64,000 bases of DNA from Clostridia bacterium (GTDB lineage: Bacteria; Bacillota; Clostridia; TANB77; CAG-508). The notes beneath the pieces are model-generated. The model was not told the origin of the DNA. It ran no database searches and saw only the letters and a program-made list of their open reading frames with translations. Within the stretch, counting starts at the first letter, position 1; each line of letters starts with the position of its first letter. Position numbers and translations under genes: made by a program. This document shows positions 35,483 through 54,803 of this stretch, one piece after another. Where the stretch lies: the NCBI GenBank assembly GCA_017510525.1, contig JAFWNC010000008.1, positions 11,119-75,118 on the forward strand, in the 5' to 3' direction.

Positions 35483-38400
35483 ATGCAAAAGAATAGGAGT
35501 ATAAGAGAGAAAATCACAGCTAGTGTTTTAGTTATATGTTTGCTTATGTCATATTTGGCTACATTTAGTAGTATCTATGTAACTTATGCTAGTGATGAAA
35601 AAGCTGAAGTTGTTTTCAAGGCTGAAATTGTTGATTTGAATAGTGAAAATTCAAATGAACAATCTGAAAATAATGAAAACACTGAAGAAACAGAGAATAA
35701 TGAAGAGCTGGAGAATCAGGTTGAAACTGAAGAACAAGATGAAAATAGTTCAAATCAAGAAGCTGAGGTTAACCTACAAACTAACACCCCTGAATCAGAA
35801 GAAAAACCTGGAAGTAGGTTTGTTCTTAAGATTAAGGTTGGTGTTAAAAATAATGGTTATTTGAAAAACGGCAAGATTGAAATCTCTGATCTTGAAAACC
35901 AAATTTTCTCTATTTCTGAATTCTCTAATCCTATAGTTCAATCTATCTCTGATGGAGTTATAAAACTTAAAACAATAGATGCAAAAGAAGAATATGAAAT
36001 CGAAATACCTCTTGAATTAAAGAAAAATGCTGATGTTTCAGCAAATTCTATAGAAAACGGAACAAAGATAAAACTAACTGGAATATATGTTGACGAACAA
36101 GCTGTTGAAGAAAAAGTTGAAAGGGAACAAACTGTTTTCGTTGAGGTTGAAAACGAAAGAAAAATCGAAATAGGAAGCAACATTGAAAAATTTATTAAAT
36201 ATACTCAAGATAGTAAAGAATATGCGTTAATCCAAGTAAAGGTTGAAATTCAAGATACAGCTGAAAACCTTATATTACCTGTTAAATCAACTGATTTAGC
36301 AATCAAACTTCCTGAAATAACTGTTGAGGAAGGTAAGGAAAAGCCAGAGATTGAAAAAGTTTTAGTTGTTGCAAAAAATACTGGTTTCACAAATGGTAAA
36401 TTAGGTTCAGATGTTAAGTTTACTGAGGATAATTATAGTGTAAACAATGATGGAAAACTTAATATACATGTTGAAAATAAGGCTGAAGATGGAAAATACA
36501 AACAAACAAATGGAAAAGATGAATATTTAATAGAGCTAACTTATAATAATGCAGAAAATATTCAAACACAGTCTGCAAAAGGCAAAATTGAAGCTACTAT
36601 TAGTTTATTTGACAAGAAATCTACAAAAGATGTAAATAGTGTTTTAGAACAAGAATACAAATTTGATGAAGCTTCTACAAATAAGGTTACATATGATGTT
36701 CGAACTCTTACAGAAAAAATAAGTAAAGGAAATATATATGCTAACATAAACAAAGAAGATAACTACTATGAAACAGAATATAAAAATGAGGTTTCATTTA
36801 ATATTTCAAGAGCCAATAGTATAAAAACAATTGAAATTAGAGAATATGATGAAAGTTATTATATTGAAGATGGTAGTAAATATTCTACAAAAACTGATGT
36901 TGGGCTAGATACTTATTACAAAACATCAACCTTTAATAAAGAAAACTTAGTTAATATAATTGGCGAAAACGGTAGTTTAGAAATACTAAACGAGGAGGGA
37001 GATAGCTTAATTACTATTAATAAAGATACACAAGCTAATGAAGAAGGAAATATTGTTTATCCTTATAATAACAAAATCGAAAAAATCGTTGTAAGGGTTA
37101 ATAATCCTGAAAAAGAGGGAATTTTAAATATTCAAAATACAAAAGCAATTGAAAAGAGTAATTATACTAAAGAATCTTTAGTTCAATTTAAAGGAATTGC
37201 TAATTCATATAATGCAGCTGCTTTATATGATGAGGATATCAAGTCTGAGCTTGGTATTAAAGAAATTAAAACAGAAATGGTTGGAACAAAAACTAGAGCA
37301 GACATGGAGATTTCAAGGGGAACTTTAAGTACTATTGTTAAAAATGAAGATGTTGAGTTTGATATTTGTTTAAACAATTCAAAAGATTCAAGCGATATGT
37401 ATATTAATCCTGAATTTGAAATTACTCTTCCAGCTGGTGTTACAACGGCTACTATTAAAGATATCAACGTTTTATACGGAAATAATGAGCTTATAAAGTC
37501 AGAAGAGTCAAGAACTGGTTTGAATGATAACAATCAAGTTGTAATTTATGTAAAACTTGATGGTGTTCAAAAGAATTATAGTATTGGTGATACTGAAAGA
37601 GGAACAACTATTGTTGTTAAAACTGATATTGAATTAGATAGATATTTATCTAATAGAGAAGCTCCAGTTGAACTTAGATATAGAAATGAAAATGCTACAG
37701 AATATGGTTCTGAGGTTGTTGACGGTGTTGCAAAAGAAACACTAAATTTCAAATTTCAGGGCGGATTTGGTGTTGTAGCAAGCCAAAGAATAAGCGGATA
37801 TAATGCTGATAATTATGTAATGTCTATGAACCAAGGTGAGCAAATAGCTTCTATTTCTGATGTTGAAACTTCAAAACAAGCTGAAATGGAGATTGCTTTA
37901 ATTAATAATAATGAAGAGATTATGGAAAACCCTATTATATTAGGAAGAATTCCTTTTGATGGTGTTACTTCAATTAGTAGTTCAGAGAGCTTGGGAGCAA
38001 ATGTAAATACAAAAATGACTAGCGGAATAGAGAAAATTGTTGGAAAAGATGTTAAAGTATATTATTCAGAAAATGGTGAAGCAACAAAAGAATTAGATAA
38101 AGCTGAAAATGGATGGAGAGAAGATATTGGCGATTTACAAAAGGTTAAATCATATTTAATAGTTGTTGATGGAAATATTGAGATTGGTGAAAGTTTAGCT
38201 TTAAAATATGGTTTTGAAATTCCTGAAAACTTAGGAAAAAATGCTAGTATTTTCGGAACTTTTGGAGTTTACTATGATACTGAAATTGGAACAAAATTAG
38301 TTGAGGCTAATAAAGTTGGTCTTGAAACTGAAAAGGAAGAAATTCAAGAATCAGAGGAAACAGTATCTTTATTTAGTGTTAGAGCAGTACGTTACGGAAC

Positions 38401-40351
38401 AAATATAGCAGGAAATGGGGCTTCATCAGGAACAGAAAATAATGAATCATCAGATGAAATAACAAATATATTAGAAGATGTTATTTATGAAAGACCAAGA
38501 TATGAAGCACCAATTGATGCAGATCCAATACAAATACAATTTGAAAACGAAAGTGAAAGCTCGGTAATAATTAAAGGTGGAACAATTGAATATAATGTTT
38601 CAGTTAGAAATATGAAAACAAATCCAATAGAAGATGTTGGTGTAACAATAACTCTTCCACAGGGTTTAACATATATTGACTCAAATTCTAAAAATGAAAA
38701 TGATATAAATACAAATGGAAGTTATAATACATCAAACAGAACAGTAAGTTTCAATTTTAATTCAATAGATAAATATGAATATATAACATTGAAATTTAGT
38801 GTAGATAGTGAAATATCTGCAAATGAAGTTCAGATAACAACAAATGTACAATCTGATGATATTGATAAAGAATATAATAATACTAAACAATATACTGTTA
38901 AACAAGGAGAATTTGAAGCAAGTTATAGTAATTTGTCAGGAAATAATTATATTAAATCAGGTGAAGAAATAAAATATAAATTAACTCTTGTAAATGTATC
39001 AGGTGAAACTGTATCAGATATTACAGTTGAATCAGACTTCCCAGACGAATTAAGCTTACAAAGCGTTGAATTTGTAAAAGGTGATTATAAAACAGAAGGA
39101 TATATAACAAATAATTCATTTGTTATATCACAATATTTATTACCTAATGAATCTTTTGAAATTATTATAACAGCTGAAGCTGGAAATATAAGTGCTTCAG
39201 AAAAACAAGTAAGTAATTATTTAACAGTTACAACAGATAAGAAAACATATAGAACAGAATCTGTTGAAACTATAATTCAACAATCATCTGAAACATCAAA
39301 TGGATCAGAAGGTGGTTCAGATTATAGAGAAAATAGTAATGGCGGTATTAATATAGATACAGCTGGAGAGTATAAAATAACAGGAACAGCTTGGATTGAC
39401 AAAAATATGAATGGTTCAAGAGATTCAAGTGAAAAAGGTTTAGAAGGGATAGTAGTAAAATTATTTAATGCAAATACAAATCAATTAGTAGATAAAACAA
39501 CAACAGATGGAGCTGGAGGCTATATCTTTACAGGTTTATCACAGGGTAATTATTATATTATATTTGAATATGATGGAGAAACATATTCTTTAACAGATTA
39601 CCAAAAATCTGGAGTATCTGGTGACAAAAATTCAGATGCAATTTTATCAAATGGAGAAACTAGAACAGATACTATAGTAATAAATGATAGAAGTATTAGT
39701 AATATTGATATAGGACTAATTCAAGGAAATGTATTTGATCTAACATTAGAAAAAACAGTATCTAAAATAACTGTTCAAAATGATAATGGAACAAAGGTTA
39801 TTGATGGTAATGATTCATCACTTGCAAAAGTTGAAATAAAAGCAAAAGATTTGGCATCTTCAACTGTATATATTGAATATAAAATAAAAGTTACAAATAA
39901 TGGACAAATTCCAGGAATAGTTCAAAAAATTGTTGATTATCTTCCTAAAGATACTAATTTAAATACTGAGATAAATCCAAATTGGTATATTGGAAATGAT
40001 GGATATGCTTATAATGAACAACTTTCAGGAACTGTAATTAATCCTAAAGAAACAAAGGAAATAAGTTTAATAATATCAAAAGATATAACCGAAAATAATA
40101 CTGGATTAACTTCAAATAAAGCTGAAATAGCATTAGCATCAAATGAGTTAGGAATACAAGATATAGATTCATCTCCAGGAAATTCAAATTCTACAGAAGA
40201 TGATATGGGACAAGCAGATGTAATCATCTCAATAAGCACTGGTGGAGGGCTAATAAGCGCTTCAATCCTTATTACGGTTCTGATTAATCTATTACTCATT
40301 GGCTATGTAATAAAAAGAAAAATTGATAGAGATAGAGAGGTGATATTATAA
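35483..40351 (+). CDS. giant secreted surface protein A (1622 aa)
   Basis: Signal peptide, acidic low-complexity stretch, DUF11-type repeats (TLVNVSGETVSDITVESDFPDELS), a CnaB/SdrD-B-like domain (ITGTAWIDKNMNGSRD...GNYYIIFEYDGETY). C-terminus ...DIDSSPGNSNSTEDDMGQADVIISISTGGG, then a TM segment, then KRKIDRDRE. Confidence 0.8.
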   Translation: MQKNRSIREKITASVLVICLLMSYLATFSSIYVTYASDEKAEVVFKAEIVDLNSENSNEQSENNENTEETENNEELENQVETEEQDENSSNQEAEVNLQTNTPESEEKPGSRFVLKIKVGVKNNGYLKNGKIEISDLENQIFSISEFSNPIVQSISDGVIKLKTIDAKEEYEIEIPLELKKNADVSANSIENGTKIKLTGIYVDEQAVEEKVEREQTVFVEVENERKIEIGSNIEKFIKYTQDSKEYALIQVKVEIQDTAENLILPVKSTDLAIKLPEITVEEGKEKPEIEKVLVVAKNTGFTNGKLGSDVKFTEDNYSVNNDGKLNIHVENKAEDGKYKQTNGKDEYLIELTYNNAENIQTQSAKGKIEATISLFDKKSTKDVNSVLEQEYKFDEASTNKVTYDVRTLTEKISKGNIYANINKEDNYYETEYKNEVSFNISRANSIKTIEIREYDESYYIEDGSKYSTKTDVGLDTYYKTSTFNKENLVNIIGENGSLEILNEEGDSLITINKDTQANEEGNIVYPYNNKIEKIVVRVNNPEKEGILNIQNTKAIEKSNYTKESLVQFKGIANSYNAAALYDEDIKSELGIKEIKTEMVGTKTRADMEISRGTLSTIVKNEDVEFDICLNNSKDSSDMYINPEFEITLPAGVTTATIKDINVLYGNNELIKSEESRTGLNDNNQVVIYVKLDGVQKNYSIGDTERGTTIVVKTDIELDRYLSNREAPVELRYRNENATEYGSEVVDGVAKETLNFKFQGGFGVVASQRISGYNADNYVMSMNQGEQIASISDVETSKQAEMEIALINNNEEIMENPIILGRIPFDGVTSISSSESLGANVNTKMTSGIEKIVGKDVKVYYSENGEATKELDKAENGWREDIGDLQKVKSYLIVVDGNIEIGESLALKYGFEIPENLGKNASIFGTFGVYYDTEIGTKLVEANKVGLETEKEEIQESEETVSLFSVRAVRYGTNIAGNGASSGTENNESSDEITNILEDVIYERPRYEAPIDADPIQIQFENESESSVIIKGGTIEYNVSVRNMKTNPIEDVGVTITLPQGLTYIDSNSKNENDINTNGSYNTSNRTVSFNFNSIDKYEYITLKFSVDSEISANEVQITTNVQSDDIDKEYNNTKQYTVKQGEFEASYSNLSGNNYIKSGEEIKYKLTLVNVSGETVSDITVESDFPDELSLQSVEFVKGDYKTEGYITNNSFVISQYLLPNESFEIIITAEAGNISASEKQVSNYLTVTTDKKTYRTESVETIIQQSSETSNGSEGGSDYRENSNGGINIDTAGEYKITGTAWIDKNMNGSRDSSEKGLEGIVVKLFNANTNQLVDKTTTDGAGGYIFTGLSQGNYYIIFEYDGETYSLTDYQKSGVSGDKNSDAILSNGETRTDTIVINDRSISNIDIGLIQGNVFDLTLEKTVSKITVQNDNGTKVIDGNDSSLAKVEIKAKDLASSTVYIEYKIKVTNNGQIPGIVQKIVDYLPKDTNLNTEINPNWYIGNDGYAYNEQLSGTVINPKETKEISLIISKDITENNTGLTSNKAEIALASNELGIQDIDSSPGNSNSTEDDMGQADVIISISTGGGLISASILITVLINLLLIGYVIKRKIDRDREVIL

Positions 40352-43300
40352 TGAATAGTAAAAGAATTGCAAGTTTATTAATCATAATAATCTTATTCAT
40401 GTTAATGTTACCTGAAATAACTATCGCAGCTGAAAATACAGGAAGTTGGGTTGATTTGATAGATGATGATGATAATGAAACAGTATATAGTTTTATAGAT
40501 TATTCAAAATCATGTGGATTTAGAGCATATGATACATATAATGGTAATACTTCGTTTTATAATTTTATACCAAATTATGTTCCAGCTGGTGTATACAGTG
40601 ATAATAGTTATAAGCCATTTTATAGACTTTTATCTTCTTCTAAGATAGGTACTAATGGAAGACCTTTTAGCAGAAAAACATATGTAAAAAATGATAGTGT
40701 AAATAAACCAAGTTTTACAGAAAGGTATATTATTTATAAAGCAAATGAAAGTAAAAATGAAAGCGGTGAAAAAAATAGGAGAACTAGCTATTTAGCTGCG
40801 CAAAATGCATGGTTTAAACTAAAAGGTAATAAAATAAAATTAGATGATGAAGCACAGGATATTTTAGATGAAGCTTTTGAGTATAATACATGGGCTAAAT
40901 CTGTTGAAAGTGAATTAAAAGCTACAACTGGAAAAACAATAGATAATGCAACTGATGAAGAATTAAATGAAGCTTTAGGTGACGATTTTTATTTTGATGC
41001 ATCAAATAGTACTATATCTGTTGTGAATGATGATGATGGAAAAGGAGATTATATTCTCGTATCAAACATAAAAACAAATGGAAGAGATTCGTTTACACAT
41101 AAATCAAAGAAAAATGATCCTGATGATTGTACATTTAGTTTAAGTCCTAGAATTACTAATATAAAAATAACATTTTATAAGAATAATAATAAGAATGATA
41201 CTATGTCTCCTATAGAAGGAAAATATAAGAAAGGAGCTACAAAGTGTAGTTCTGATGGAGAAGTAACAGGTCTATTCTATGAAGGAGGTACAGATACAGG
41301 TATTACTTTAGAATTTCAAGAAATAGAAGACCATATAAGTAAATCTCAGACACGTTGTCAAACAACTTCAACTGCAATTTGTGAAATAAGTGGAAAAAAC
41401 CATTTCATTTTACAAGAAGATTCAAATGATAAGGGACCAGGTTATTATCCTTTTCCATTTGCAAAAGAGAAATTCAATTTAAAAATACCAGCTGATTTTA
41501 TAAAAGAGAATAATATTACTGGAATAAGTGAAATTAATATTGGAGTAAAAACGGAAAAAAGAGAAGTTGGATTGTTAAAGGTAAAATATGATGAAATAGT
41601 TTTAGATGATAAAAATAGTAGCATTAACAATAAAAATGATGGAACTGGTCTAAAAAGAAGTCAATTAGACGATTATACATTTATTTCACAAATTACAACA
41701 AATTCAGCTCTTGGGCTAGAAACGGAAACACCAAATGTAATAACAACAAATACATTGCTTGCAATGCCTGAAAAAACGTTAGATGAATATGAACAAATTG
41801 CAAAAATAGACCAACCAATTTTATTAGCAGATGCTTCAAATACATCATCACAAACTTCAGAAACAGAAGTTGAAGAAGAAGAATATAAAGTTAAAAAATA
41901 TAACTCAACAAGTTATCGTTTCTTAGAAACTGTAGCTGATCCTGTAGGAACAAATGATATACAAGTATCTAAGTTAAAAACAGAAGATGGATATAAATAT
42001 TACCAATTTACAAAAGGTGATAGCATAGTATATGGAAAACTAGAGGAATCAAGTAAAACAATAAACTTCTATACAAATAACTTAAGATATGGAAGTTCAA
42101 TAGATATAGGAACTTGTTTTGGAATAGGTGCAGGTCAAATGAAACTTACTGGTGATTCAACTTCAACAACACAAACAATACAAGCAACAGAAGGTGTAAA
42201 AGCTGTTACAAATGCTTCAACCAATATACAATTAAGAGTAACAGATTTAAAATTAACAGCAAATAAAAACAAAACAATAATAACAGCTGAATTAGGTGGA
42301 AATGATAAATATTTAGAGATATTTGGAAATAAAGTAACATGGGGCTCTAAAACATATACAGCAACAGTAAGTGGTAAGAAAATGACTATAGAAGTTAATA
42401 CAGAAGATATATTATCATCATCTGATATGAGGCTTGAAGTTGAATATGGAATAATAGATGGAACGCTTAGAAATCAAGGATTCAGGTTTACAGAATATCA
42501 GAAAACAGGACTAAAAAAATACATAACATTATCAGTACCAAATGAATTAGCAAATACACTAGAAAAGAAATTTGCTGCAACCGTAAATGATGATATAGAA
42601 ACAACAATGAGTAAAAGCGTAAATGGAATAAATTATCTAGTTAGAACAAAAGGAAATCAATTAGCATTTTTAAAACCTAGAGAGATTGCTGAAGAAACTG
42701 AATTGAGAACAAGTGAAGATGGAAGTGGTACATCATATATTGCTCAAACAGGAAATGTTTTATTTGGTTTAAGATTTAGTGATTCATCAAGTGGATATTA
42801 TATTTCATCAACAGATTCAATTACTGCAAATAAAAGTTTATCTGTTTTTGAAACAATTAAATTTGAAAACAAAGGATATAATTTAAAATTATCATCTCAG
42901 GATTTAACTCAAAACCCTGTTCTTGACATTGAATTAAGGTATACTGTAAAAGATTCAAACGATTCATCAGTATCAGCAAATATAGTTCAATATATACGAA
43001 TAGAAACAACAGGAAAATACACTGAAGTTCCAACAGAAGAGAGCGTTTTAGGAAAAGGAACAATTGCCGGAAACTTACAAACTTTAGTAGATGGTTCACT
43101 AACATATAAAGAAGTATTAGAAGAATCATTATTATTAAATACTCAATTAACATCATTATTTACTGGATGGGCAAATTTAATTAATAGTTCAGATTATCAA
43201 GAATATACACAAGAAAATTCAGTAAGAACAAATACAATAAACAGTGAAGAAGATGGAAATCCTGCTTTAAAAGTATTTACAACAGATGGACTTTTAACAG

Positions 43301-46300
43301 GTGGAATTAGACCTGAAGTTGCTGGTGTAGAGTGGGATGGTAATGATTTAGTAGTAACAATGAAATCAACAACTGCAAGTATTTCAAGTATACACTTAGC
43401 TTCTTATAATTATAAAGAAGGTTGGATACAAGATAATGTTTCTAGTGGAAAAGCACCAACTATCTATTATCAACAATCACAATTAAGCGTATCAAACAAT
43501 AGAATAACTATACCAAATGCAAAAAATCTATTAGATAATATATATACTAATTTTTATATATTAGTAAGAGATACTGCTGGGGAAAATGCTGTTTTAAATA
43601 TACAAGCTATACGTAATGATAATGGAAAAACATATGTTGTAGAAGATAATTATTATAGAATATTAGGTACAACACATTTTGCAGATGACAAAATTAATTT
43701 TACAAATGAAAAATTCTATACAGAATATAATGATGGAAGTAAAGATAAAATTACATTTAATATTCCATTTACATTTAGAAATGGGTCAAGTGATTATTGT
43801 TTAGATTTTTATGATGACAATAAAGCTAAAGAAGCAACTGGTTCTGTAATAGATAATAATGTTGCTAAAATAACATTTGATAAAAGATTGATACAATCAT
43901 TAGGAGAAGGTCGCTCGCTACAAATAAATGCAACTGTAAAAGATGACCATAATAATGATGTAACAGTTACAATAGAATTAAAAATAATGTATAAGGGACA
44001 AATACTAACACAAGGAAATAATTATAAAGATGTTATTGGAAATTATATTGTAACAGTAGAAAGTCCAGTATATGACCTAGATATATCTATTGACAAATCT
44101 GCATTTTTCGTTGATAAAACAAGAAAAGACCATAGTGTTGAAGGTTCTGTTAATGCAAATACTTATCATGATTTTCAATTATTAGTTCAAAATATACCAG
44201 AAGGATATACTTTAGATAGCGTTAATTCAGGAGCTTATGGTGATTTATTTGGTACGCCTAATTATGATATTTATGATAAAGATTTAGTTGTTACCCAATA
44301 TGAATCAAAGATACTTGATGCAGTTGCAGGATTTACTCAAAAATATTTTGGAGATTTCCAATTTGAAGAAAGAGTAAATAAGAAAGTCTTAGAAGTACAA
44401 AATGGTTTGCCTAAATATGGATTAGTTCAAGATAATGCATCAGTTAGACATTATATTCTTTTCAAAAATGCGAGTGGAGATGTAATTACTTTAACTGTTA
44501 AAATTGAGAAAATTGCAAGTGTTGTTGTTAATAGAACATTAGAAAAAGGCGTAAATGTAAATAATTTATATATAGAAGGACCTTATGATGATAATATGAG
44601 TTCTCTTAAAGATGCAGTAATAAATGCAAAAAATAACAATGATAGTATACAAATTACTGAAACAGCAGATACATATAATAATAAAGATATGGAAGTATAT
44701 TTCAATACAGGAGAGAATGTAAATCAGAAAGATGCTTGGACCTTACAATATGAATTGTTAAATGATTATCAAGATGGTGGAGATATATCTTTAAATAATG
44801 AGTCTATTCAGGTAATTAGAGTAGAACAAAGAGGCTATTTAAATCAAGGATATAATCATTATGCAAATATAGAACTTTATTTTGAAGATGCTATCAGTTA
44901 TGAAATAAACTATAGATATAGAATTAATGAAAGTGGTTATGGTGGAGATGGATATGCTGGGCAAATGCTTTCAATTGTAGGCGATGCTGATGAAAACGGA
45001 ATTATATATACATCAAATCTTGGTAACTCAGCTAATAATGAATATATAGAAGGTAATAAAGCAATTTTCAGAGTAAATAGAAATGGATTTTCATGTATAA
45101 CAGTAAGATTTAGTGACTATTCAATACAAAACATATTTGTTTATGCACCTACATTGTTTATAGGAGAAGTTTTAAACAAAGCAGGAGAAAATCTAATCGA
45201 AGATTTACCTTCAATAAGAGACGAAGGACTATTAAATAGAGGTGCTCAGTTCTATGTAGACTTAGAAAAAGGTGATGATAAAACATTAGTATTTTATAAT
45301 ATAACTGGTGAGGTTGGCTTAGGAGATACACTTGGAGTTCCAGCTATAAAAAATGGAGCGAGAACAGTTGCATGGTATGGAGAAAGTCAAACTAATGATG
45401 GATTAGAATGGATTACAACAAAGGATATGTGGGAAAATTATGGAGCAAATTCAACACTTATAAGAAAAGAATCGAATGGAAGCGGAAAAGAAACATATAC
45501 AGTTGATTTAGGAGATATAGAAGGATTTGCTTTAGACCCTGATAATATAAAAGAATATTCAGATGAATCTGAAAATAATCCTAATATTATACCTTCAAAT
45601 TACTATTATAATGTTGATACAGATACTTATGAATTACGTTGGTCTTTTAGATCAACTGACTTACATCATGATGGAAAAGCTATAAATAAATTTGATACAA
45701 CCCTATTTACAATAATATTTAGAGGAAATCCTTCACCAACACCAGGTGAAGATCCAGAACTTGTATATGCAAAAGAAATTCAAGAATTTAGAAAAAATGA
45801 TGAAGATACACCAGATTCTAGAAAAGTAACACCTCCAGAAGAAGGTTGGGACTTTACAATGGAAGTTGGAGGAGAAGTTTGGGTAGATAGTCCAGACACA
45901 GATAAAGGTGTAAATACTAAATATGGATTAAGGGATGAAAATGATAGCAGAATAACTCAAGATATGACTGTACACTTAGAGGAATATGAAGGAACGAGAT
46001 TAATTAATACGATAGATAAAACAATAAAAGCAGGGGAAAGTAGCTATATTTTTGAAGGGATATTACCTCCACTTGCATCAGCGGGACAAGATAGACATTA
46101 TTATAATATAAGATTTGAATATGATGGTCAAAAATATGAACCAACAGAGTTTTTATCAACATCAAGTGTTGACATAGATAATGGTATTGATAGTACAAAT
46201 GGAAATGTTAATAGTATAAAACAATATAGAATTAATGATATGATTAATAACTTGTCAAAATATAAAGAAAATACATGTTCATGGGTAACAGAAAGTGAGA

Positions 46301-49300
46301 CAACAAGAAAAGATTTTGATAGTAGATTATCTACAATAGATAATAAAAATGGACAAGTTGATTATAAGAATAATCCAAATTATGACGAAAAAATCAGTGC
46401 TTCAACGCTTGATGCAGGGTATACAATACCAGTTGGACTTGAAGATTATCATCTAAAAAATAGAGATACATCAATTCAAGTAAAAAGAACAAAAATACAG
46501 CCAGATACACACTACACAATAAAAGGATATAGTAAATCTATAAACTTAGGTTTAGTCGAAAGAGATGAGTCAGATATAGCTGTAATTCAAGACTTGTATT
46601 ATGCTAAAACAGTTGTAAAACACTATGAACAAACATATAAATATAATGCATTTAAAGTTAATAATCAAGATATTAATTACACAGTAAAAGGCCAGGATTA
46701 TAAACTTGGATTATATTCATCAGACTTTATTTATAATTCAGGAATTTATGAAGATACAGCAGTTGATACATTCATGAGTGCTACAGAACTTAGACTATTC
46801 TTAACATATAGAATTAATGTAATTAATGAGTCTCCAAATGTAACAACAGTAGTAGGACAATTGGCTGATTACTATGATGATTCATTTACATTAATTACGG
46901 ATGAAGTAAAACCTGGAATTATAGAAGAGGGTGTAGCTAATAATACAATAAATAATAATAAAGTAGTTGCTTATCCAAGTTTCTATAGAAAAATAGATTC
47001 AGGACAAAACGGAGTATATAATTTTGATGCTGTTGCAGATGGATATGGAAATAATAATAGTGTTACATGGACAGATACAGCTGAAAAAGGTAAGAAGATA
47101 TGTAATATTAATCAATCTATGGAACCAGGTGAAAAAATAGAGCTATTTGTAACATTCGAAGTTGACCAAGAAACAGCTCAAAATGCTATACGTGAAAGCA
47201 TGAAAACAGCATATGAAAACCTAGGAGATGATGCAACACAAGATGAATATGTTAAAGCTGTTGCAAATGAAGTTAGAACAAAGCTTATGGGTGAACAACA
47301 TAACTATATAGAATTAAACAATTATTCAACAAAATATAGAAGAAGAATGAATAATACTTCTGCATATTCTGTAGATTCAAATTCAGGAAAAATAGATAGA
47401 GACTCATGCCCAGGAAATATGGTAATTGGTTCTCTAAAAGAAGATGATGAATGTCAAGCACCAACACTAAATGTATTTGTAGAAGGAAGTCATATAAGAG
47501 AAATATCAGGTGTAGTTTGGGATGACTCAGATAAAGATAAAACAGATGGTCAATATATAGATGGAGAAACAAGTATTTCAAATATTCCAGTATCATTAAT
47601 AGAAAAGATAAAAGATCCTGATAATGGTATTGAATATGAATTTGTACATAAAGGAAAATATGATGGAGATACAGATACATTCAATATTAAAGCAGGTACA
47701 AATCAAGGTGATTCATATACATTATCATCAGAAGATGGCTATAAAATAAAAGGAATGGCACCAGGTATTTATTCATTAAGATTTGAATATGGTGCAAATG
47801 ATGATATGATTAATAATTCAAAGTTCACAGATATTAATTATAAATATAATGGACAAGATTATAAAAATACAAAAGTAAGTCAAAACTTAGATGAAGAGTG
47901 GATGGATGTATCTGAGAATTCTTCTAATAGACTTTCAGATGCAGTAGACTATATTCCAGCAAGATTAAGAAATATAGCATATTCAAGAACAATATCAGCT
48001 GAAAATGGCTCAGTTTTAGCTTCAAAATCGCAAGAAAAATTACAAAACACATACATGAGAGCTGATTCATATAAAATGAAATTAATACCAGAAATCAAAG
48101 AAACTGAAGAAGGAACTCTTGAATATACATTGCCTTACGATGTTAAAGATGTTGATTTTGGTTTAGAGAAAAGACCAGAAACGAAACTATATCTTGACAA
48201 GAAATTAACTGAAATTACTCTAACAAAATCAGATGGAACTGAAGCTATATTTAACGCAAAATTTGACTATGAATATGATACAGAAAATAATAAATATAAA
48301 TTAACAGGAATGGATATTGAAAATGGAATTAATCTCGATAAATTAACATCAGTTGTTGAGGATGGTAACCAACAAGGATTCCGCTATATTCAAATGGAAG
48401 ATAGTTATTTATCAAATTTAAGTATTAACTTAAAATATGATATCTATGTAACAAACATTTCTGAAGAAGATTATATAAGAAATACTGTTGCAGATATGAA
48501 AACACCAGATGCGTTATATAGAGCTGCAAGTGAATTAGAACAAAGTGGTTCATATCAAAGAGGTTATTTATGTGATGAAAACAATATTCTAGGAGGATAT
48601 TACTTTAAACATGAACGTTTTGGTTGGGATGATCCTGTTACTACAACAGTAGACCAAGTAGTTGATTATATTGATAATGATATAGGTCTAGATATTGAAG
48701 AAAATACAAATGTTGAAAACCATGCATGGAAATTTGCAGAAATATATGATGGAAAAACAGTTAAAAATAGCTTAGCAGGATTAATTACAAATGATTCATA
48801 TAATGGAGAAGAATTAACAGACAATGGATCAGGAAATTCAGGAAAAGGTGTAAGCTATTTTGGAACAGGTAAATCAAATATTGCATTATCTGTAAACAGC
48901 AATATAAAAACAAGTCAATCTGGAGACGAGCCAGAAAAAGAAACATACTATTCACATATGAAGAGAACAGATGCTAAAGTCAAAGATGATAAAATATATG
49001 ATGAAGGGCAAATAACTCTATCTGCAACTCAAGCAAGATATAAGGGAAATGATACACAAGATAAGTATAATCCAGATTTAACTAAAGAATTAAAACCAAA
49101 TGATACAGCAAAGATTGGAATTTCAACATCGAAAACAATAAGTAGTGGAACAGATTCAGACAACTTGAAATTTGATAACTTAGCTGAAATATTAGTATAT
49201 TCAAATACTGTAGGTAGAAAAGATATGGATGCTATTCCAGGAAATGCAAATAAGATTGCAAAATCAAGTGGTGCATGGGCAGCTGGACGTTCAGGAGGAG

Positions 49301-49500
49301 GAGAAAGAGACTCAGACTCACCAGAATATATTACAATAACTCCACCTACAGGATTAAGCGAAAAAATGGAAACAAGTAATAACATGTTAATAGTAACGAT
49401 TGTTGCAACTGCAACTGCGTTTATAGCATCAATTACAGTTCCAATAATAACAATCCTATATGACAAAAGTAGAAAAACAGTAAAAGAGGATGATCAATAA
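40351..49500 (+). CDS. giant secreted surface protein B (3049 aa)
   Basis: ATG overlaps the A stop (TAATG). Signal peptide. N-terminal domain with SKSCGF and AAQNAWF, resembling thioester-domain Cys and Gln motifs. CnaB-like GVVWDDSDKDKTDGQYIDGE...GIYSLRFEYGANDD. C-terminus ...ITITPPTGLS, then 10 polar residues, a TM segment, and KSRKTVKEDDQ. Confidence 0.8.
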   Translation: MNSKRIASLLIIIILFMLMLPEITIAAENTGSWVDLIDDDDNETVYSFIDYSKSCGFRAYDTYNGNTSFYNFIPNYVPAGVYSDNSYKPFYRLLSSSKIGTNGRPFSRKTYVKNDSVNKPSFTERYIIYKANESKNESGEKNRRTSYLAAQNAWFKLKGNKIKLDDEAQDILDEAFEYNTWAKSVESELKATTGKTIDNATDEELNEALGDDFYFDASNSTISVVNDDDGKGDYILVSNIKTNGRDSFTHKSKKNDPDDCTFSLSPRITNIKITFYKNNNKNDTMSPIEGKYKKGATKCSSDGEVTGLFYEGGTDTGITLEFQEIEDHISKSQTRCQTTSTAICEISGKNHFILQEDSNDKGPGYYPFPFAKEKFNLKIPADFIKENNITGISEINIGVKTEKREVGLLKVKYDEIVLDDKNSSINNKNDGTGLKRSQLDDYTFISQITTNSALGLETETPNVITTNTLLAMPEKTLDEYEQIAKIDQPILLADASNTSSQTSETEVEEEEYKVKKYNSTSYRFLETVADPVGTNDIQVSKLKTEDGYKYYQFTKGDSIVYGKLEESSKTINFYTNNLRYGSSIDIGTCFGIGAGQMKLTGDSTSTTQTIQATEGVKAVTNASTNIQLRVTDLKLTANKNKTIITAELGGNDKYLEIFGNKVTWGSKTYTATVSGKKMTIEVNTEDILSSSDMRLEVEYGIIDGTLRNQGFRFTEYQKTGLKKYITLSVPNELANTLEKKFAATVNDDIETTMSKSVNGINYLVRTKGNQLAFLKPREIAEETELRTSEDGSGTSYIAQTGNVLFGLRFSDSSSGYYISSTDSITANKSLSVFETIKFENKGYNLKLSSQDLTQNPVLDIELRYTVKDSNDSSVSANIVQYIRIETTGKYTEVPTEESVLGKGTIAGNLQTLVDGSLTYKEVLEESLLLNTQLTSLFTGWANLINSSDYQEYTQENSVRTNTINSEEDGNPALKVFTTDGLLTGGIRPEVAGVEWDGNDLVVTMKSTTASISSIHLASYNYKEGWIQDNVSSGKAPTIYYQQSQLSVSNNRITIPNAKNLLDNIYTNFYILVRDTAGENAVLNIQAIRNDNGKTYVVEDNYYRILGTTHFADDKINFTNEKFYTEYNDGSKDKITFNIPFTFRNGSSDYCLDFYDDNKAKEATGSVIDNNVAKITFDKRLIQSLGEGRSLQINATVKDDHNNDVTVTIELKIMYKGQILTQGNNYKDVIGNYIVTVESPVYDLDISIDKSAFFVDKTRKDHSVEGSVNANTYHDFQLLVQNIPEGYTLDSVNSGAYGDLFGTPNYDIYDKDLVVTQYESKILDAVAGFTQKYFGDFQFEERVNKKVLEVQNGLPKYGLVQDNASVRHYILFKNASGDVITLTVKIEKIASVVVNRTLEKGVNVNNLYIEGPYDDNMSSLKDAVINAKNNNDSIQITETADTYNNKDMEVYFNTGENVNQKDAWTLQYELLNDYQDGGDISLNNESIQVIRVEQRGYLNQGYNHYANIELYFEDAISYEINYRYRINESGYGGDGYAGQMLSIVGDADENGIIYTSNLGNSANNEYIEGNKAIFRVNRNGFSCITVRFSDYSIQNIFVYAPTLFIGEVLNKAGENLIEDLPSIRDEGLLNRGAQFYVDLEKGDDKTLVFYNITGEVGLGDTLGVPAIKNGARTVAWYGESQTNDGLEWITTKDMWENYGANSTLIRKESNGSGKETYTVDLGDIEGFALDPDNIKEYSDESENNPNIIPSNYYYNVDTDTYELRWSFRSTDLHHDGKAINKFDTTLFTIIFRGNPSPTPGEDPELVYAKEIQEFRKNDEDTPDSRKVTPPEEGWDFTMEVGGEVWVDSPDTDKGVNTKYGLRDENDSRITQDMTVHLEEYEGTRLINTIDKTIKAGESSYIFEGILPPLASAGQDRHYYNIRFEYDGQKYEPTEFLSTSSVDIDNGIDSTNGNVNSIKQYRINDMINNLSKYKENTCSWVTESETTRKDFDSRLSTIDNKNGQVDYKNNPNYDEKISASTLDAGYTIPVGLEDYHLKNRDTSIQVKRTKIQPDTHYTIKGYSKSINLGLVERDESDIAVIQDLYYAKTVVKHYEQTYKYNAFKVNNQDINYTVKGQDYKLGLYSSDFIYNSGIYEDTAVDTFMSATELRLFLTYRINVINESPNVTTVVGQLADYYDDSFTLITDEVKPGIIEEGVANNTINNNKVVAYPSFYRKIDSGQNGVYNFDAVADGYGNNNSVTWTDTAEKGKKICNINQSMEPGEKIELFVTFEVDQETAQNAIRESMKTAYENLGDDATQDEYVKAVANEVRTKLMGEQHNYIELNNYSTKYRRRMNNTSAYSVDSNSGKIDRDSCPGNMVIGSLKEDDECQAPTLNVFVEGSHIREISGVVWDDSDKDKTDGQYIDGETSISNIPVSLIEKIKDPDNGIEYEFVHKGKYDGDTDTFNIKAGTNQGDSYTLSSEDGYKIKGMAPGIYSLRFEYGANDDMINNSKFTDINYKYNGQDYKNTKVSQNLDEEWMDVSENSSNRLSDAVDYIPARLRNIAYSRTISAENGSVLASKSQEKLQNTYMRADSYKMKLIPEIKETEEGTLEYTLPYDVKDVDFGLEKRPETKLYLDKKLTEITLTKSDGTEAIFNAKFDYEYDTENNKYKLTGMDIENGINLDKLTSVVEDGNQQGFRYIQMEDSYLSNLSINLKYDIYVTNISEEDYIRNTVADMKTPDALYRAASELEQSGSYQRGYLCDENNILGGYYFKHERFGWDDPVTTTVDQVVDYIDNDIGLDIEENTNVENHAWKFAEIYDGKTVKNSLAGLITNDSYNGEELTDNGSGNSGKGVSYFGTGKSNIALSVNSNIKTSQSGDEPEKETYYSHMKRTDAKVKDDKIYDEGQITLSATQARYKGNDTQDKYNPDLTKELKPNDTAKIGISTSKTISSGTDSDNLKFDNLAEILVYSNTVGRKDMDAIPGNANKIAKSSGAWAAGRSGGGERDSDSPEYITITPPTGLSEKMETSNNMLIVTIVATATAFIASITVPIITILYDKSRKTVKEDDQ

Positions 49501-49504
49501 GAAT

Positions 49505-49535
49505 AAGGCAAAGGGACTGACCCTTTGCCTTTTCG
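49505..49535 (+). terminator. intrinsic terminator of the A-B operon
   Basis: aaggcaaagggactgaccctttgcctt followed by ttcgg. Confidence 0.6.
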
Positions 49536-49740: not shown

Positions 49741-49769
49741 TTGAAAATTTCCAAATAAAGGTGTATAAT
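49741..49769 (+). promoter_or_regulatory. putative promoter TTGAAA-17-(TG)TATAAT for the second giant operon
   Basis: ttgaaa 49741-49746, tgtataat 49762-49769. Confidence 0.4.
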
Positions 49770-49904: not shown

Positions 49905-52900
49905 ATGTTAAAGAATAGGAGAAGTACTAAGAAAGTATTAGCCTTATTTCTAGTATTTACTATTATGTTTGCTAATATGTTCACAGTTGTTGAATATGCT
50001 GCTTCAAATCTAGGTAAATTAGATTCCAGCGATATTCATGAAAACGTAGAATATGATGCAAAACTTGTAGTAAATGAAGAAGAAAAAGGTTATGAAAACG
50101 CTTTCGATATGAATGAAGAAAACGCAGGTATTAAGCTAGAACTTAATGTAGAAGATAGCGGATACCTTAAAAATGCAAGTATCTCATTTGAATCAGAAAA
50201 CGGATTGAATTTTGAGATTGGAAAAATCGCTGAAAATGATTTAGTTCAAAATTTAGAAAATAACAAATTAAAACTAAATCAAATAAACGAAGGTGATAGT
50301 TTAGAAATCACAGTTCCAATTAAATTCAAAAACACAGATTCAATAGACAATTTAAGCAAAGTTGTATCTGCTAAGTTGTCTGGAATATATGTTGACAATT
50401 CTGGTAAAGAGAACAAAATATCAGAAACAGTAAACTTAAAAGTTACTTGGAATGTTAATACAGAATTAACTGTTTCATCAGAAATAACAAAATATATTCC
50501 TTATAGCTCTAGCAACGGTTCAGGAGTAATTGTTCAAACAAATGTAAAAATGAACATGGGTCAAAAAGCTGAACTAGTTGGAAAAGAGAAATTAGAAATT
50601 GAAGCTTTAAAAATACAAGGTCTAAAACTAGACAAAGTAACAGTTATAAGAAACAATGAAGCTGATTTCTCAGAAAAAGATTGGAAACAAAGTGATGATA
50701 AGATCACAATCGATATTAAGAATGATAACTCTAAAGAGTTTGTTAAAGAAGAATTCTTAATTACTTATATTTTCACTGGAACAGACACTAATGTTTTACC
50801 ATTATCTTTAAATAGTAAAATATTAGCTACAGTTGAAATGTTTGGAAGTAATGAGAAAATAGAAACAGAAAAAGAAGAGTTATACACAGTTTCTGAAAAG
50901 ATTGGGGAAATCGTTTCTATATCTTCTGAATTATCTGAAGAAGTTTTAAATAAAGGAAATATTATAGCTGATAAATATAATGAAGCTAAGGCTTATACAA
51001 CTAACTATGAAATAAACCATAGAATAAATATTTCTTCAACAGATTTAGTTGAAAAGATTTCTATTACTGATATTGATGAAAACTTTAAAGCTGGAGAAAA
51101 TAGTTATTCTACAGTAAATAGCTCATTATATAAGAAAGTTAAAGTTTCTAAAGATGAATTTGAAAAGATCTTAGGAACTGATGGTAAGATTTCTGTTATG
51201 AGCAGAGGAGAAGAAATAGCTACAATTACTAAAGATTCTAAAGTAGAAGATGGTAGTTATGTAGCTGAAATAGCTAAAGAAGTAAGTAGAGTAACAGTTA
51301 ATACTACTGCTCCAAAAACAGAAGGAAACTTAAATATTAAATTAAGTAAAGAAATAAAAGATACAGAATATGAATTAAGCGATATTAAAGCTTGGGATTT
51401 AATGGAATATACTGCACAAGGAAGTATTACTTTAACAGGTGATACACAAAACAAAGTTGCAGATATGCAAAAATCTATTAAATTAGAAAATACTAAAACA
51501 GATACTAATATTTCTTTAAATAAAACATCATTAGGTACAATAGTAAATAATGAAAATGTTGAAATAAAAGTAAGTTTAAATAATGATAAAATAGGAACAG
51601 ACTTTTATAAAAATCCTAAATTTGAAATTACTTTACCTGAATATATTCAAGAAGTAGATTTCAAAGATGTAGGTATTGCTAACGGTGGAGAAGATTTCAA
51701 AATTTCTAAAGCAGAAGCTAATGTTGAAGACGGTAGAGTTGTTATTAGAATTGAACTTGAGGGAACTCAAAAATCATATCCACTAAATAATGTAACAGAT
51801 GGTACAAATATAATTATCAACACAAACATGAGATTAAAATTATTAACACCTTCTAAAGAAGATATAATTACATTAAAATATATAAATGAAGATGCTACAG
51901 AATATTTAGATAACGGATATGAAGAAGTTAAAATATCATATGTAGCACCTACAGGAGTTATAAGTGTTAACTCTACATCAAATTATAATGGAGATAACTC
52001 AAAAGTAATTTCTGTAAATCAAGGTACAAAAACAGATAAGATTGAAATATTTGATAATGCTAAAACAGCAACAATGGATATCTTAGTTATGAACAATAAC
52101 GAAAATACAACTAAAGATGTTAAAATCTTAGGTAGAATTCCTTTCAAAGGAGTTAAAGATGTTAGAACAGGTGAAGAATTAGGAACAACAGTTGATACAA
52201 CAATGACTTCACAAATCATAGCTAACCAAGAAAACAATGCAAATGTTATAATTTATTATTCAGAAAATGGAGAAGCTACAGCTGATCTAACTGATATGAA
52301 TAATGGTTGGAGAACAGATATTACTGATTTTTCAAAGGTTAAATCATACTTAATAGTAACTGACAATTATGAAATGAATAAAGGTGATATATTAAGATTT
52401 TTTTATGAATATACAATTCCTGAAAATCTAGAACATAACAATTATATCTATGGTACATTTGGAACAATTTATAAAGATGTATCAGAAATAGCTGAAAATC
52501 AAGAAATATCTACACCAGACTTAGTTGGACTTACAACAGGTAAAGGACCAAATATTTCAGTTACTACAAAATTAAGTACTGGTAAAGATTCAATTAAAGA
52601 ATCTGAAAAAGTTAAATATACAGCTGAAGTTAAAAACACTGGTGAAGAAGATGCTAGAGATGTAGTAGTAAAAACAGAACTTCCAGAAGGAACAACATTT
52701 GTTGAATATCAAAAACAAGGTTCAATATATGAAGCAAAAGGCTGGAAGTATATTGATGGAAGAGAAAGCATAGAGAAATTTGATACAATTAAACCAGGAG
52801 AAACAAAAGTTATTGAATTTACTGTTGAAGCAAATTCAGTATCTAATGAAATTACTACTGTTGATTGGAAAACAGAGATTACAGCTAAGGACTTAGCTAA

Positions 52901-54803
52901 AACATTAGAATCTGAAGTTATAACAACAACTATTGAAAAAGGTGAGATTATAACTGAAGAATTTACAGAGACTATAGCTGATATAGTACAAGAAAACGAT
53001 GATATTATTTACAAAATAGCTGTAAAGAATACATCTGATAAAGATATTTCAAATATTAAAGTCGAAAAAGACTTACCAGATTTATTAAAATATAGTGAAA
53101 GCTATGTTCAAGATTTTGATGAAGAATTAAACTTAATAGAAAATACAGCTGATAGTAACTATGATATGGATAATAGAAAAGTAACATGGACTATTGATAA
53201 TATTAAAGCTGGAACAACAAGATATGTTGTATTAAAAGCAGTAGCTGGAGAATTAACTGGTGATGTTTATGAAGATACAATTACTACAAATTCAAAAGTA
53301 ACAGCAAATTCAAATACATACTATACAGCTGATGTAAATGAGAAAATTGCTAGACCTAAATTAGTTGTAGAGCAAATTTCTAATAAAAATGGTGAATTTA
53401 TTGGTGAAGGTGAAATAGTTGAATATACAATAAAAGTTAAAAATGAAGGTATTGTTCAAGCTGAACAAGTTGAAGTAACTGATAATTTACCTAATGAATT
53501 AAAAGTTAGATCTTTAAAATATAAAGTTGATGGAACTGAATTGTCAAGAACAGTATCTAAAAATGAAGACGCTGTTGTGTATACAAGTTTAGCTCCACAA
53601 AGTGAAGTAGTAATTAACTTATCTGCTGTTGCTAATACAATAGATCAAACTCAAAAATCTGTATCTAATGTTGCTACAATAGATACGGCAAATGCAAATA
53701 GTGCAACAACAAATAAAGTAAATAATACTATTGAAAGAACAATAGAAGCTCAAACAGCTGGTAATAACGAATCAGAAAATATTTATAAAATAACTGGTCT
53801 AGCATTTGTTGATACAAATCAAAATGGACAAAAAGATGAAAATGAAGCTGGATTAGAAGGAATTGAAGCAGTTTTGGTTGATGTAAACAGCTTAAACAAG
53901 ATTCAAACAGTTGCTACAGGTGCAAATGGAGAATATTCATTTAGTAATTTATCAAACGGAAATTATTATGTAATATTCTACCATAATTCAACAAGATATG
54001 ATTTAGCAACATATAGAAAAGAAAATGTACCTGAAAATCTAAATTCAAATGTTATTTCTGCTGAAATAGAAGAAAATGGAGAAAAGAGAACAGTTGCTGT
54101 TACAGATGCATTAACTATTTCAAATGGAAGTATTTCAAATATTAATATAGGTTTAACAGATACAAAGATATTTGATTTATCACTAGAAAAAACTATTTCA
54201 AGTATCACAGTTCAAAATGAAAATGGAACAAAGAAAAATGAATATAATAACTTAGGCTTAGCCAAAGTTGAAATTGCACCTAAAGATTTAGCTGATACTA
54301 AAGTATATGTTGAATATAAGATAACAGTTAAAAATGAAGGTGATGTTGAAGGATATGCTAAGAAAATAGTAGATTACTTACCAGCTGGAATGGAATTTAG
54401 TACAGAACTTAATAAAAACTGGTATCAAGGAACAGACGGAAAACTATATAGTGAAGAATTAGCTAATACAGTAATAGAAAAAGGACAATCTGCTACAATT
54501 ACATTAATTCTTTCAAAACAAATGACTGAAGAAAATACAGGTATTGTAACAAATACAGCTGAAATAGTAGAAAGTTATAATAAATTAGGATTAGCTGATA
54601 AAGATTCAAGTCCAAATAATAAAGCTCAAAATGAGGATGACTTAGGAAGAGCTGATGCTATCCTATCAATCAATACAGGTAGTACATTAATTTATATAAC
54701 AGCAATTGTTACTACAATAATGATGGCGATCATATTATTTATAGTAATAAGGATGAATAGGTACAAGATAAAATGGTACTTACAAAAAAAGGAGGTGAAT
54801 TAA
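49905..54803 (+). CDS. giant secreted surface protein C (1632 aa), paralogue of A
   Basis: Signal peptide, DUF11-type repeats, CnaB-like ITGLAFVDTNQNGQKDENEAGLEGIEAVLVD...GNYYVIFYHNSTRYD. C-terminal region aligns with A. Ends ...DKDSSPNNKAQNEDDLGRADAILSINTGST, then a TM segment, then RMNRYKIKWYLQKK. Confidence 0.8.
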   Translation: MLKNRRSTKKVLALFLVFTIMFANMFTVVEYAASNLGKLDSSDIHENVEYDAKLVVNEEEKGYENAFDMNEENAGIKLELNVEDSGYLKNASISFESENGLNFEIGKIAENDLVQNLENNKLKLNQINEGDSLEITVPIKFKNTDSIDNLSKVVSAKLSGIYVDNSGKENKISETVNLKVTWNVNTELTVSSEITKYIPYSSSNGSGVIVQTNVKMNMGQKAELVGKEKLEIEALKIQGLKLDKVTVIRNNEADFSEKDWKQSDDKITIDIKNDNSKEFVKEEFLITYIFTGTDTNVLPLSLNSKILATVEMFGSNEKIETEKEELYTVSEKIGEIVSISSELSEEVLNKGNIIADKYNEAKAYTTNYEINHRINISSTDLVEKISITDIDENFKAGENSYSTVNSSLYKKVKVSKDEFEKILGTDGKISVMSRGEEIATITKDSKVEDGSYVAEIAKEVSRVTVNTTAPKTEGNLNIKLSKEIKDTEYELSDIKAWDLMEYTAQGSITLTGDTQNKVADMQKSIKLENTKTDTNISLNKTSLGTIVNNENVEIKVSLNNDKIGTDFYKNPKFEITLPEYIQEVDFKDVGIANGGEDFKISKAEANVEDGRVVIRIELEGTQKSYPLNNVTDGTNIIINTNMRLKLLTPSKEDIITLKYINEDATEYLDNGYEEVKISYVAPTGVISVNSTSNYNGDNSKVISVNQGTKTDKIEIFDNAKTATMDILVMNNNENTTKDVKILGRIPFKGVKDVRTGEELGTTVDTTMTSQIIANQENNANVIIYYSENGEATADLTDMNNGWRTDITDFSKVKSYLIVTDNYEMNKGDILRFFYEYTIPENLEHNNYIYGTFGTIYKDVSEIAENQEISTPDLVGLTTGKGPNISVTTKLSTGKDSIKESEKVKYTAEVKNTGEEDARDVVVKTELPEGTTFVEYQKQGSIYEAKGWKYIDGRESIEKFDTIKPGETKVIEFTVEANSVSNEITTVDWKTEITAKDLAKTLESEVITTTIEKGEIITEEFTETIADIVQENDDIIYKIAVKNTSDKDISNIKVEKDLPDLLKYSESYVQDFDEELNLIENTADSNYDMDNRKVTWTIDNIKAGTTRYVVLKAVAGELTGDVYEDTITTNSKVTANSNTYYTADVNEKIARPKLVVEQISNKNGEFIGEGEIVEYTIKVKNEGIVQAEQVEVTDNLPNELKVRSLKYKVDGTELSRTVSKNEDAVVYTSLAPQSEVVINLSAVANTIDQTQKSVSNVATIDTANANSATTNKVNNTIERTIEAQTAGNNESENIYKITGLAFVDTNQNGQKDENEAGLEGIEAVLVDVNSLNKIQTVATGANGEYSFSNLSNGNYYVIFYHNSTRYDLATYRKENVPENLNSNVISAEIEENGEKRTVAVTDALTISNGSISNINIGLTDTKIFDLSLEKTISSITVQNENGTKKNEYNNLGLAKVEIAPKDLADTKVYVEYKITVKNEGDVEGYAKKIVDYLPAGMEFSTELNKNWYQGTDGKLYSEELANTVIEKGQSATITLILSKQMTEENTGIVTNTAEIVESYNKLGLADKDSSPNNKAQNEDDLGRADAILSINTGSTLIYITAIVTTIMMAIILFIVIRMNRYKIKWYLQKKEVN

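Follow-up and report, generated by a model that had tools for sequence, protein, structure and literature searches.

Sortases that recognize sorting motifs other than LPXTG are known from both Clostridia and streptococci. In Clostridioides difficile, a single sortase, SrtB, serves scattered substrates and cleaves the motifs SPKTG, PPKTG, SPSTG and SPQTG between the T and the G (PMC4155245). In Streptococcus pyogenes, the class B sortase Spy0129 acts on EVPTG or QVPTG in the major pilin and on VPPTG or VVPTG in the tip adhesin, Cpa; taken together, these make up the consensus (E/Q/V)(V/P)PTG (PMC3019223). The domain family DUF11 (PF01345) has been renamed CLIPPER and is described as a CnaA-like immunoglobulin (Ig) domain, often with an intramolecular isopeptide bond, from which fibrillar-adhesin stalks are built (bioRxiv 10.1101/2025.04.25.650565). 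Here we describe four giant surface proteins, A to D, encoded one after another in a stretch of 64,000 nucleotides (the window) of contig JAFWNC010000008.1 from a Clostridia bacterium, each of which ends in a pentapeptide closing with T-G, a hydrophobic segment and a positively charged tail. The A/C and B/D proteins carry two different types of tail. With a probability of about 0.55, both types are sortase-type cell wall sorting signals on paired fibrillar adhesins, and our confidence is higher for B and D and lower for A and C.

All four genes lie on the plus strand, as do the features described below unless stated otherwise, and coordinates are window positions. Protein A (35483..40351, 1622 aa) consists of a signal peptide, an acidic low-complexity stretch, CLIPPER/DUF11 repeats, SdrD_B, a terminal CLIPPER-like domain and the anchor, and its paralogue C (49905..54803, 1632 aa) has four DUF11/CLIPPER matches plus SdrD_B. 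These assignments lie above the Pfam gathering score, with 39 bits for DUF11 (PF01345) and 63 bits for SdrD_B (PF17210) in A and 91.9 and 52.2 bits, respectively, in C; TIGR01451 matches as well, and precomputed PF01345 matches fall on the terminal domain. Protein B (40351..49500, 3049 aa) combines a signal peptide and a large variable head with SdrD_B-like modules, a terminal domain and the anchor, and has no Pfam match. Protein D (54805..59880, 1691 aa) begins with a signal peptide and a head in which a Cys and QxAWW are conserved; a Pro-rich/poly-Asp linker then leads to SdrD_B-like modules, the terminal domain and the anchor. Between them, B and D have hardly any Pfam matches, and their N-terminal heads are highly variable among relatives. 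An N-terminal Sec signal peptide, with a basic N-terminus followed by a hydrophobic core, can be read directly from the sequence of all four proteins.

At its C-terminus, A reads ...ADVIISISTGGG, the transmembrane (TM) segment LISASILITVLINLLLIGYVI and then KRKIDRDREVIL, or, in a longer reading, ...DIDSSPGNSNSTEDDMGQADVIISISTG followed by GGLISASILITVLINLLLIGYVI and KRKIDRDREVIL. The motif DIDSSPGNSNSTEDDMGQADVII and the last beta-strand of the terminal domain occupy 40160..40228, the pentapeptide SISTG 40229..40243, 35 aa from the end, and the hydrophobic segment GGLISASILITVLINLLLIGYVI with the basic tail KRKIDRDREVIL 40244..40348. Protein C ends in ...ADAILSINTGST..., a TM segment and RMNRYKIKWYLQKKEVN (in the longer reading ...DKDSSPNNKAQNEDDLGRADAILSINTG, then STLIYITAIVTTIMMAIILFIVI, then RMNRYKIKWYLQKKEVN), with the motif DKDSSPNNKAQNEDDLGRADAIL and the last strand at 54597..54665, the pentapeptide SINTG at 54666..54680, 40 aa from the end, and the hydrophobic segment STLIYITAIVTTIMMAIILFIVI plus tail RMNRYKIKWYLQKKEVN at 54681..54800. 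In B, a variant of the upstream motif, GRKDMDAIPGN...GERDSDSPEYITI, and the last strand before the anchor (49213..49338) lead into ...EYITITPPTG (longer reading ...GERDSDSPEYITITPPTG); the pentapeptide TPPTG (49339..49353, 48 aa from the end) is followed by the polar spacer LSEKMETSNNM, a hydrophobic TM segment of 25 aa and the tail DKSRKTVKEDDQ (49354..49497). In D, ...LLTFTEPTG (longer reading ...GERDTAAADLLTFTEPTG) contains the pentapeptide TEPTG (59752..59766, 37 aa from the end), followed by the polar spacer LDVQEETTTNY, the hydrophobic segment MVAILSASIVIAAGIMVTMLFVF of 23 residues and the tail KRK (59767..59877).

The distance from the G to the C-terminus is thus 35–48 aa across the four proteins, which is typical of sorting signals; for an LPXTG-like pentapeptide, the range taken as reference is ~17–45 aa. 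All C-termini quoted in a first-pass annotation of this DNA are present in the sequence, and the layout it described, an xTG motif, a hydrophobic helix and a basic tail, is found in all four proteins and, with an invariant T-G, throughout the family. Its coordinates, 35483-40351, cover gene A only, and the observation extends over 35483-59880, that is, genes A to D. The same annotation pointed to a DxDSxP(G/N)N...EDD...A motif, which does lie shortly before the anchor in both A (aa 1560) and C (aa 1565) and recurs internally in B (DRDSCPGN...EDDECQAPTLNVFV, 47395..47460, aa 2349) and D (DRDSAPNN...EDDTESAPAIKIEL, 57934..58020, aa 1044). Neither internal copy is followed by TG, which indicates that the TG is part of the anchor and not of the Ig fold.

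The A/C-type tail is strictly conserved across a large family. With a profile of the A/C terminal domain, 250 related sites were retrieved from species-representative genomes, and 77 loci were fetched; all 77 derive from gut metagenome-assembled genomes whose labels read uncultured Clostridia or Clostridium sp., and the best match is 75% identical. A search of 1.84 billion library representatives gave 3658 proteins that match the terminal domain, 1536 of them at E<=1e-30. Every one of the 88 complete A-type C-termini in the 77 loci has the form xxxTG, passing directly into a hydrophobic segment and a basic tail, with T and G invariant and the consensus [SGT][VIL][KSR]TG. Among the 73 tails that could be aligned in register, position -5 is S (47), T (15) or G (9), position -4 is V (38), I (30) or P (3) and position -3 is K (43), S (15) or R (7), with T at -2 and G at -1 in all 73. 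A hydrophobic segment and basic tail are also present in 131 of 150 cluster representatives (clustered at 50% or less), and 129 of these 131 have T-G, the exceptions being SG and QG; position -4 is V in 55 of the representatives, I in 49, L in 11, T in 5 and P in 4. By eye, the tails of several other representatives are like the C-terminal domains of the Bacteroidota type IX secretion system, which suggests that the stalk domain is combined with whichever sorting device its lineage has.

The sequence of the A-type hydrophobic segment is not conserved. The A/C form retains only the T-G together with a small residue (-5), a beta-branched one (-4) in place of the usual Pro and, in most cases, a basic one (-3), and the helix follows at once. 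A few A-type members have SPSTG, SPATG, SPRTG, GPKTG or TPSTG at the site where others have S[VI][KS]TG, and these Pro-bearing variants at the same position tie the A-type motif to the (S/P)PxTG form, from which it would differ by a simple P-to-V/I substitution. In our reading, the A/C signal is a variant of a sorting signal that has not been described before. The literature searched contains none of SIKTG, SVKTG, GVKTG, SVSTG, SISTG, TPPTG and LPPFG as a sorting motif.

The B/D-type tail resembles described signals more closely. The 81 distinct non-A tails, three of which come from unrelated neighbour proteins (two LPYTG and one IPPTG), follow the pattern A-E-x-(V/I)-(T/I)-(I/V)-[TLMV]-P-[PST]-[TF]-G-x-N-(R/K)-x-Y, then a hydrophobic segment and (I)KK(K/F)VL. 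The G is invariant in 81/81, and the pentapeptides are TPPTG (28), LPPFG (10), TPSTG (8), TPTTG (4), TEPTG (3), TDPTG (3) and others, including MPTTG and IPSTG. The TEPTG of D belongs to a minority x[DEKR]PTG form. Only B, with TPPTG, has a Pro at position 2 of the pentapeptide; D (TEPTG), A (SISTG) and C (SINTG) do not. The statement of the first-pass annotation that none of the four motifs is LPXTG-like therefore fails for B, as TPPTG fits xPxTG and is the commonest form of the family.

Both classes were also compared with curated sorting-signal models. When 68 tails of each class were scanned with the TIGR01167 LPXTG_anchor model, 43 B-type tails matched at E<=1 and 26 (~38%) at E<=0.016, a value that corresponds by scaling to approximately the curated cutoff; the A-type numbers were 27 and 6. 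A TPPTG tail (locus L006) scores 14.4 bits and a genuine LPYTG tail (locus L046) 14.3 bits, against a cutoff of 15.9. Replacing TG by QS in the A-type tails reduced the TIGR01167 matches at E<=1 from 27 to 5 and left those to Rumino_NPXTG and Loki-CTERM unchanged, so that the latter are driven by the helix and tail alone. The model TIGR03065 (srtB_sig_QVPTGV) gave weak matches only, to three of 68 B-type and two of 68 A-type tails (best E 5.8e-4), and the weak ones survive the exchange of TG for QS. On its sequence, the B/D tail reads as an LPXTG-type signal with a relaxed first position, an ordinary representative of a known kind and not an exotic one: the family consensus TPPTG is of the LPXTG type, ~38% of the B-type tails are at about the cutoff, and the TEPTG of D closely resembles the streptococcal consensus (E/Q/V)(V/P)PTG (PMC3019223).

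The difference that the first-pass annotation saw between the A/C and B/D signals holds in every cassette, the former being [SGT][VIL]xTG abutting the helix and the latter xP[PST]TG with a spacer of ~8 residues between pentapeptide and helix. The two tail classes are distinct throughout and never mixed. A sub-family of the B-type proteins with LPPFG (loci L003, L009, L012, L015, L033, L047, L050, L064 and L073) has its TM segment almost immediately after the pentapeptide, and the paired A-type protein retains xxxTG. That the classes never mix and that the A-type T-G is kept beside an LPPFG partner agrees with, and falls short of proving, two recognition specificities, as suggested in the first-pass annotation.

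Genes A and B, like C and D, form a pair. The start codon of B lies within the stop codon of A (TAATG, 40349-40353), and D begins 1 nt past the stop codon of C (54801-54807). Directly 3' of B, a hairpin with a perfect 11-bp stem (49505..49531) is a probable terminator of an A-B operon, and a promoter-like site, TTGAAA-17-TATAAT (49741..49769), a near-consensus match only, precedes C; A-B and C-D look like separate operons. In the 77 loci, a large gene lies directly downstream of the A-type gene in 79 of 88 cases, within 30 nt in 69, and is never itself A-type, and most of the other nine A-type genes lie where the fetched DNA breaks off. The site of the cassette is often that seen in the window, in the order mreC-mreD-PBP2-minC-[A-B]n-hslO. 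From these counts and the shared synteny, A-B and C-D are tandem copies of a conserved two-gene cassette. The overlap and short gaps, in the window as in the other loci, point to translational coupling and a probably fixed stoichiometry of the two products. The hosts of the cassette are uncultured, low-GC, spore-forming gut Clostridia, and its products are secreted proteins of the fibrillar-adhesin type.

The cognate sortase was looked for by phmmer with Staphylococcus aureus SrtA and SrtB and by a TLxTC pattern, applied to all open reading frames (ORFs) of the window, the 77 loci and 7 extra loci. Neither the window, nor its flanks in the same organism (~8 kb upstream and 7 kb downstream), nor 1.37 Mb around the 77 loci gave a match. 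Within the reach of this search, the observation of the first-pass annotation that there is no sortase nearby extends to the ~15 kb of flanking DNA and to the related loci, none of which has a dedicated sortase within 10 kb; a SipA-like gene was not searched for. The sequence covered from the window organism itself amounts to ~80 kb. Housekeeping sortases are commonly not adjacent to their substrates. Canonical sortase substrates adjoin the cassette in three loci. In L046, an SdrD_B+VWA protein (1539-3863, minus strand), whose C-terminus consists of IIIPPTG, a TM segment and a basic tail, stands next to a papain-like protease with Big_2 and LPYTG (3817-5958, minus strand), and L052 (15063-16418) and L061 (448-1221) encode a 451-aa LPYTG and a 257-aa LPKTG protein, respectively. 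The presence of LPYTG and LPKTG proteins beside cassettes suggests that the clade very probably has sortases elsewhere in the genome, so that their absence from the neighbourhood carries little weight, and the occurrence of xPPTG on an unrelated SdrD_B+VWA protein indicates that this signal is portable between protein families.

We propose the following course of events. A and C would provide a stalk of isopeptide-type CLIPPER/DUF11 Ig domains and SdrD_B, and B and D a fast-evolving head on SdrD_B-like modules. After export by Sec, the hydrophobic segment and basic tail would retain each protein in the membrane, and a sortase encoded elsewhere in the genome would cleave between T and G; the enzyme is probably of class B, a class that is common in Clostridia. 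The acceptor of the Thr would be either peptidoglycan or a lysine on the partner protein, and the two motif classes might be read by two enzymes or with different outcomes. For the stalk, the invariant residues K9, E50 and N130 in alignment A1 are compatible with a Lys-Asn isopeptide bond and a catalytic acid.

Several observations weigh against a sorting function. Besides the missing sortase, the four tails of the window match no NCBIfam sorting-signal model, even at E<=10. The LPPFG of ten of the 81 B-type tails has Phe where cleavage would be expected, and the literature searched contains no such sortase motif. Among published xVxTG candidates, NVQTG comes closest, and C. difficile SrtB failed to cleave it in vitro (PMC4155245). 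AlphaFold2 (AF2) predicts the last 207 residues of A as a beta-sandwich (pLDDT, the model's per-residue confidence score, 84.5) with a final strand at residues 160-170 (MGQADVIISIS), T171-G172 as sole linker and a helix from 173 to the end (173-206). The residues ahead of the TG in A and C thus lie within the last beta-strand and the TG is a mere two-residue hinge to the helix, and on this model the V/I may be kept for folding and sortase access could be poor. A Foldseek search with the terminal-domain model of A returned only generic Ig-like sandwiches, for example RhoGDI and CARDB.

The strongest alternative is that the tails are ordinary, uncleaved membrane anchors in which the T-G serves as a hinge or helix N-cap and the V/I is a buried strand residue. 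This would apply to A and C and possibly also to B and D, and we regard it as a serious but clearly less probable explanation. It would account for the strand-hinge-helix arrangement of the AF2 model, for the failure to find a sortase near any of ~90 cassettes, for the window tails that match no model and for the absence of Thr in the LPPFG variants, and it is helped by the restriction of the A-type signals to the homologous terminal domain, their portability not being demonstrated. Set against it is the near-total invariance of two juxtamembrane residues in >200 sequences at <=50% identity, which would be unusual for a plain anchor, as positions -3 and -5 and the TM segment vary. The internal copies of the same strand lack the TG, and some A-type members have SPSTG or GPKTG at the site. 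Moreover, the B-type PxTG lies outside the strand, scores as an LPXTG anchor and occurs on the unrelated VWA protein.

If both tails are indeed sorting signals, the A-B cassette could build a two-protein covalent surface fibre, in which one sortase joins the Thr of the head's xPxTG to a lysine of the stalk and a second enzyme reads the [SGT][VIL][KSR]TG of the stalk and fixes the complex to the wall. This second enzyme may be a sortase that has diverged, or else a sorting enzyme of a new type. We put this elaboration forward as a speculation that is rather doubtful as it stands.

Still less probable, in our estimate, is that a normal sortase reads the B/D tails and an undescribed non-sortase system, a membrane protease or transpeptidase like exosortase, archaeosortase or rhombosortase, reads the [VIL]xTG of A and C. 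The strict separation of the two classes within cassettes and the A-type TG retained beside an LPPFG partner would suit such a system, as would the lack of any known sorting-domain model that fits A and C of the window and of SIKTG, SVKTG and SVSTG from the sorting motifs in the literature searched. Against this, no conserved candidate gene for the enzyme travels with the cassette, the flanks being housekeeping genes (mreCD, PBP2, minC and hslO), and the tail architecture and KKxVL tails are shared with the LPXTG-like B-type. The domains recognized by these enzymes (PEP-CTERM, PGF-CTERM and GlyGly-CTERM) were considered and rejected, as no window tail matches them; the few weak Loki-CTERM and PEP-CTERM matches among homologues outlast mutation of the TG and thus come from the TM segment and tail. 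Finally, the four window tails represent two paralogue pairs and are not independent, so that their resemblance to sorting signals might be a functionless chance feature, which the conservation across hundreds of diverged family sequences effectively refutes.

In A, the signal peptide gives way directly to a low-complexity stretch that is strongly acidic and contains much Asn, Glu and Ser (35630-35800, aa ~50-105). B is nearly twice as long as most B-type relatives, its closest relative (in locus L002) having >3333 aa, and contains internal duplications, aa 345-456 being like 2547-2654 and aa ~1405-1538 like 2210-2347. In D, the head is joined to the first SdrD_B-like module by a Pro/Thr-rich linker (PIPTPTPVITPNPITPTPGRTIPPY) and, after it, DDDDDDD and KKKK (56200-56330, aa ~466-510). 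The head of D (54805-56244) has Cys61, in LLC[SC], and Q216-x-A-W-W, which are invariant in the five D-type heads of alignment A2 (D with those of L014, L069, L067 and L037). This combination resembles the Cys/Gln signature of thioester-domain adhesins, with its conserved Cys and Q-x-A-(hydrophobic)-W, and the D-type heads may be thioester domains. The head of D gave no Pfam match and no match in a PDB profile search, and the single-sequence AF2 model was unusable (pLDDT 30).

The window has a GC content of ~29% and a uniform composition, as a chromosomal stretch, and its host is a spore-forming Clostridia bacterium that is also present in metagenome assemblies of ENA, for example ERZ28655611 scaffold_258. 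Upstream of A to D are the housekeeping genes for SpoIIE, SMC, MetK, PcrA, RadC, MreC, MreD, a PBP2-type transpeptidase and MinC, and downstream are those for Hsp33 and GatC. A mobile-element or phage origin of the cassette is rejected in view of the flat composition, the housekeeping flanks and the conserved synteny, and a tblastn search of plasmids and phages with the terminal domain of A gave no match. Between minC and gene A lie two small ORFs on the minus strand, at 34118-34465 (115 aa) and 34465-34848 (127 aa), one of which is Pro/Tyr-rich with a hydrophobic C-terminal end, the other having a conserved ...LKPY..R..KIDQY... C-terminus. They have no Pfam match; in several loci (L003, L006 and L019), similar ORFs precede the cassette. 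About 5 kb past the right end of the window, in the same organism (L078, 19257 onward), a called gene comes after gatCAB, LemA and a G5 protein; its product, 9562 residues long, has the domains Flg_new, Big_12 and Laminin_G_3.

The cassettes are spread over many uncultured gut Clostridia and encode the largest surface proteins of their neighbourhoods, and their products are likely to be major determinants of gut attachment. Should [VIL]xTG be a real sortase signal, a whole class of wall-anchored adhesins has been missed by LPXTG-based predictors, and the invariant T-G gives a simple rule by which to search for them. Should the covalent fibre exist, it would add a new motif to the known sorting signals and give an abundant uncultured gut lineage a pilus-like adhesin that is both giant and heterodimeric. 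If the tails are uncleaved, the proteins are well-conserved, membrane-tethered fibrillar adhesins, and they caution against taking xTG, a TM segment and a basic tail for a sortase signal in every case.

Compared with known systems, A and C have the composition of CLIPPER stalks, being long secreted proteins with DUF11/CLIPPER repeats, SdrD_B and a C-terminal sorting region; the [VIL]xTG anchor and the two-gene cassette are not described in that work (bioRxiv 10.1101/2025.04.25.650565). With the LPXTG signals of TIGR01167, all four proteins share the signal peptide, a T-G pentapeptide 35–48 aa from the end, the hydrophobic segment and the basic tail, and they differ in having T, M or V instead of L at position 1 and, in A and C, V/I/L for Pro at position 2 and no spacer. 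The substrates of C. difficile SrtB likewise come from Clostridia and have xPxTG followed by a short polar stretch (TGDNTNLY... compared with TGENRNY... in the B-type), and the (S/P)PXTG form recurs as SPSTG or SPATG on a few A-type relatives; however, B has T at position 1, and position 2 is E in D and I in A and C (PMC4155245). In the S. pyogenes FCT pilus, a sortase of its own and the SipA chaperone are encoded beside the pilins, whereas no sortase was found at the cassettes, and the A to D proteins are 5 to 10 times larger than the pilins. The xxPTG motifs of the pilus proteins resemble the TEPTG of D and the TPPTG of B. Both systems show an interchange of V and P at position 2, and both have neighbouring genes for an adhesin-type and a stalk-type protein that carry different motifs.

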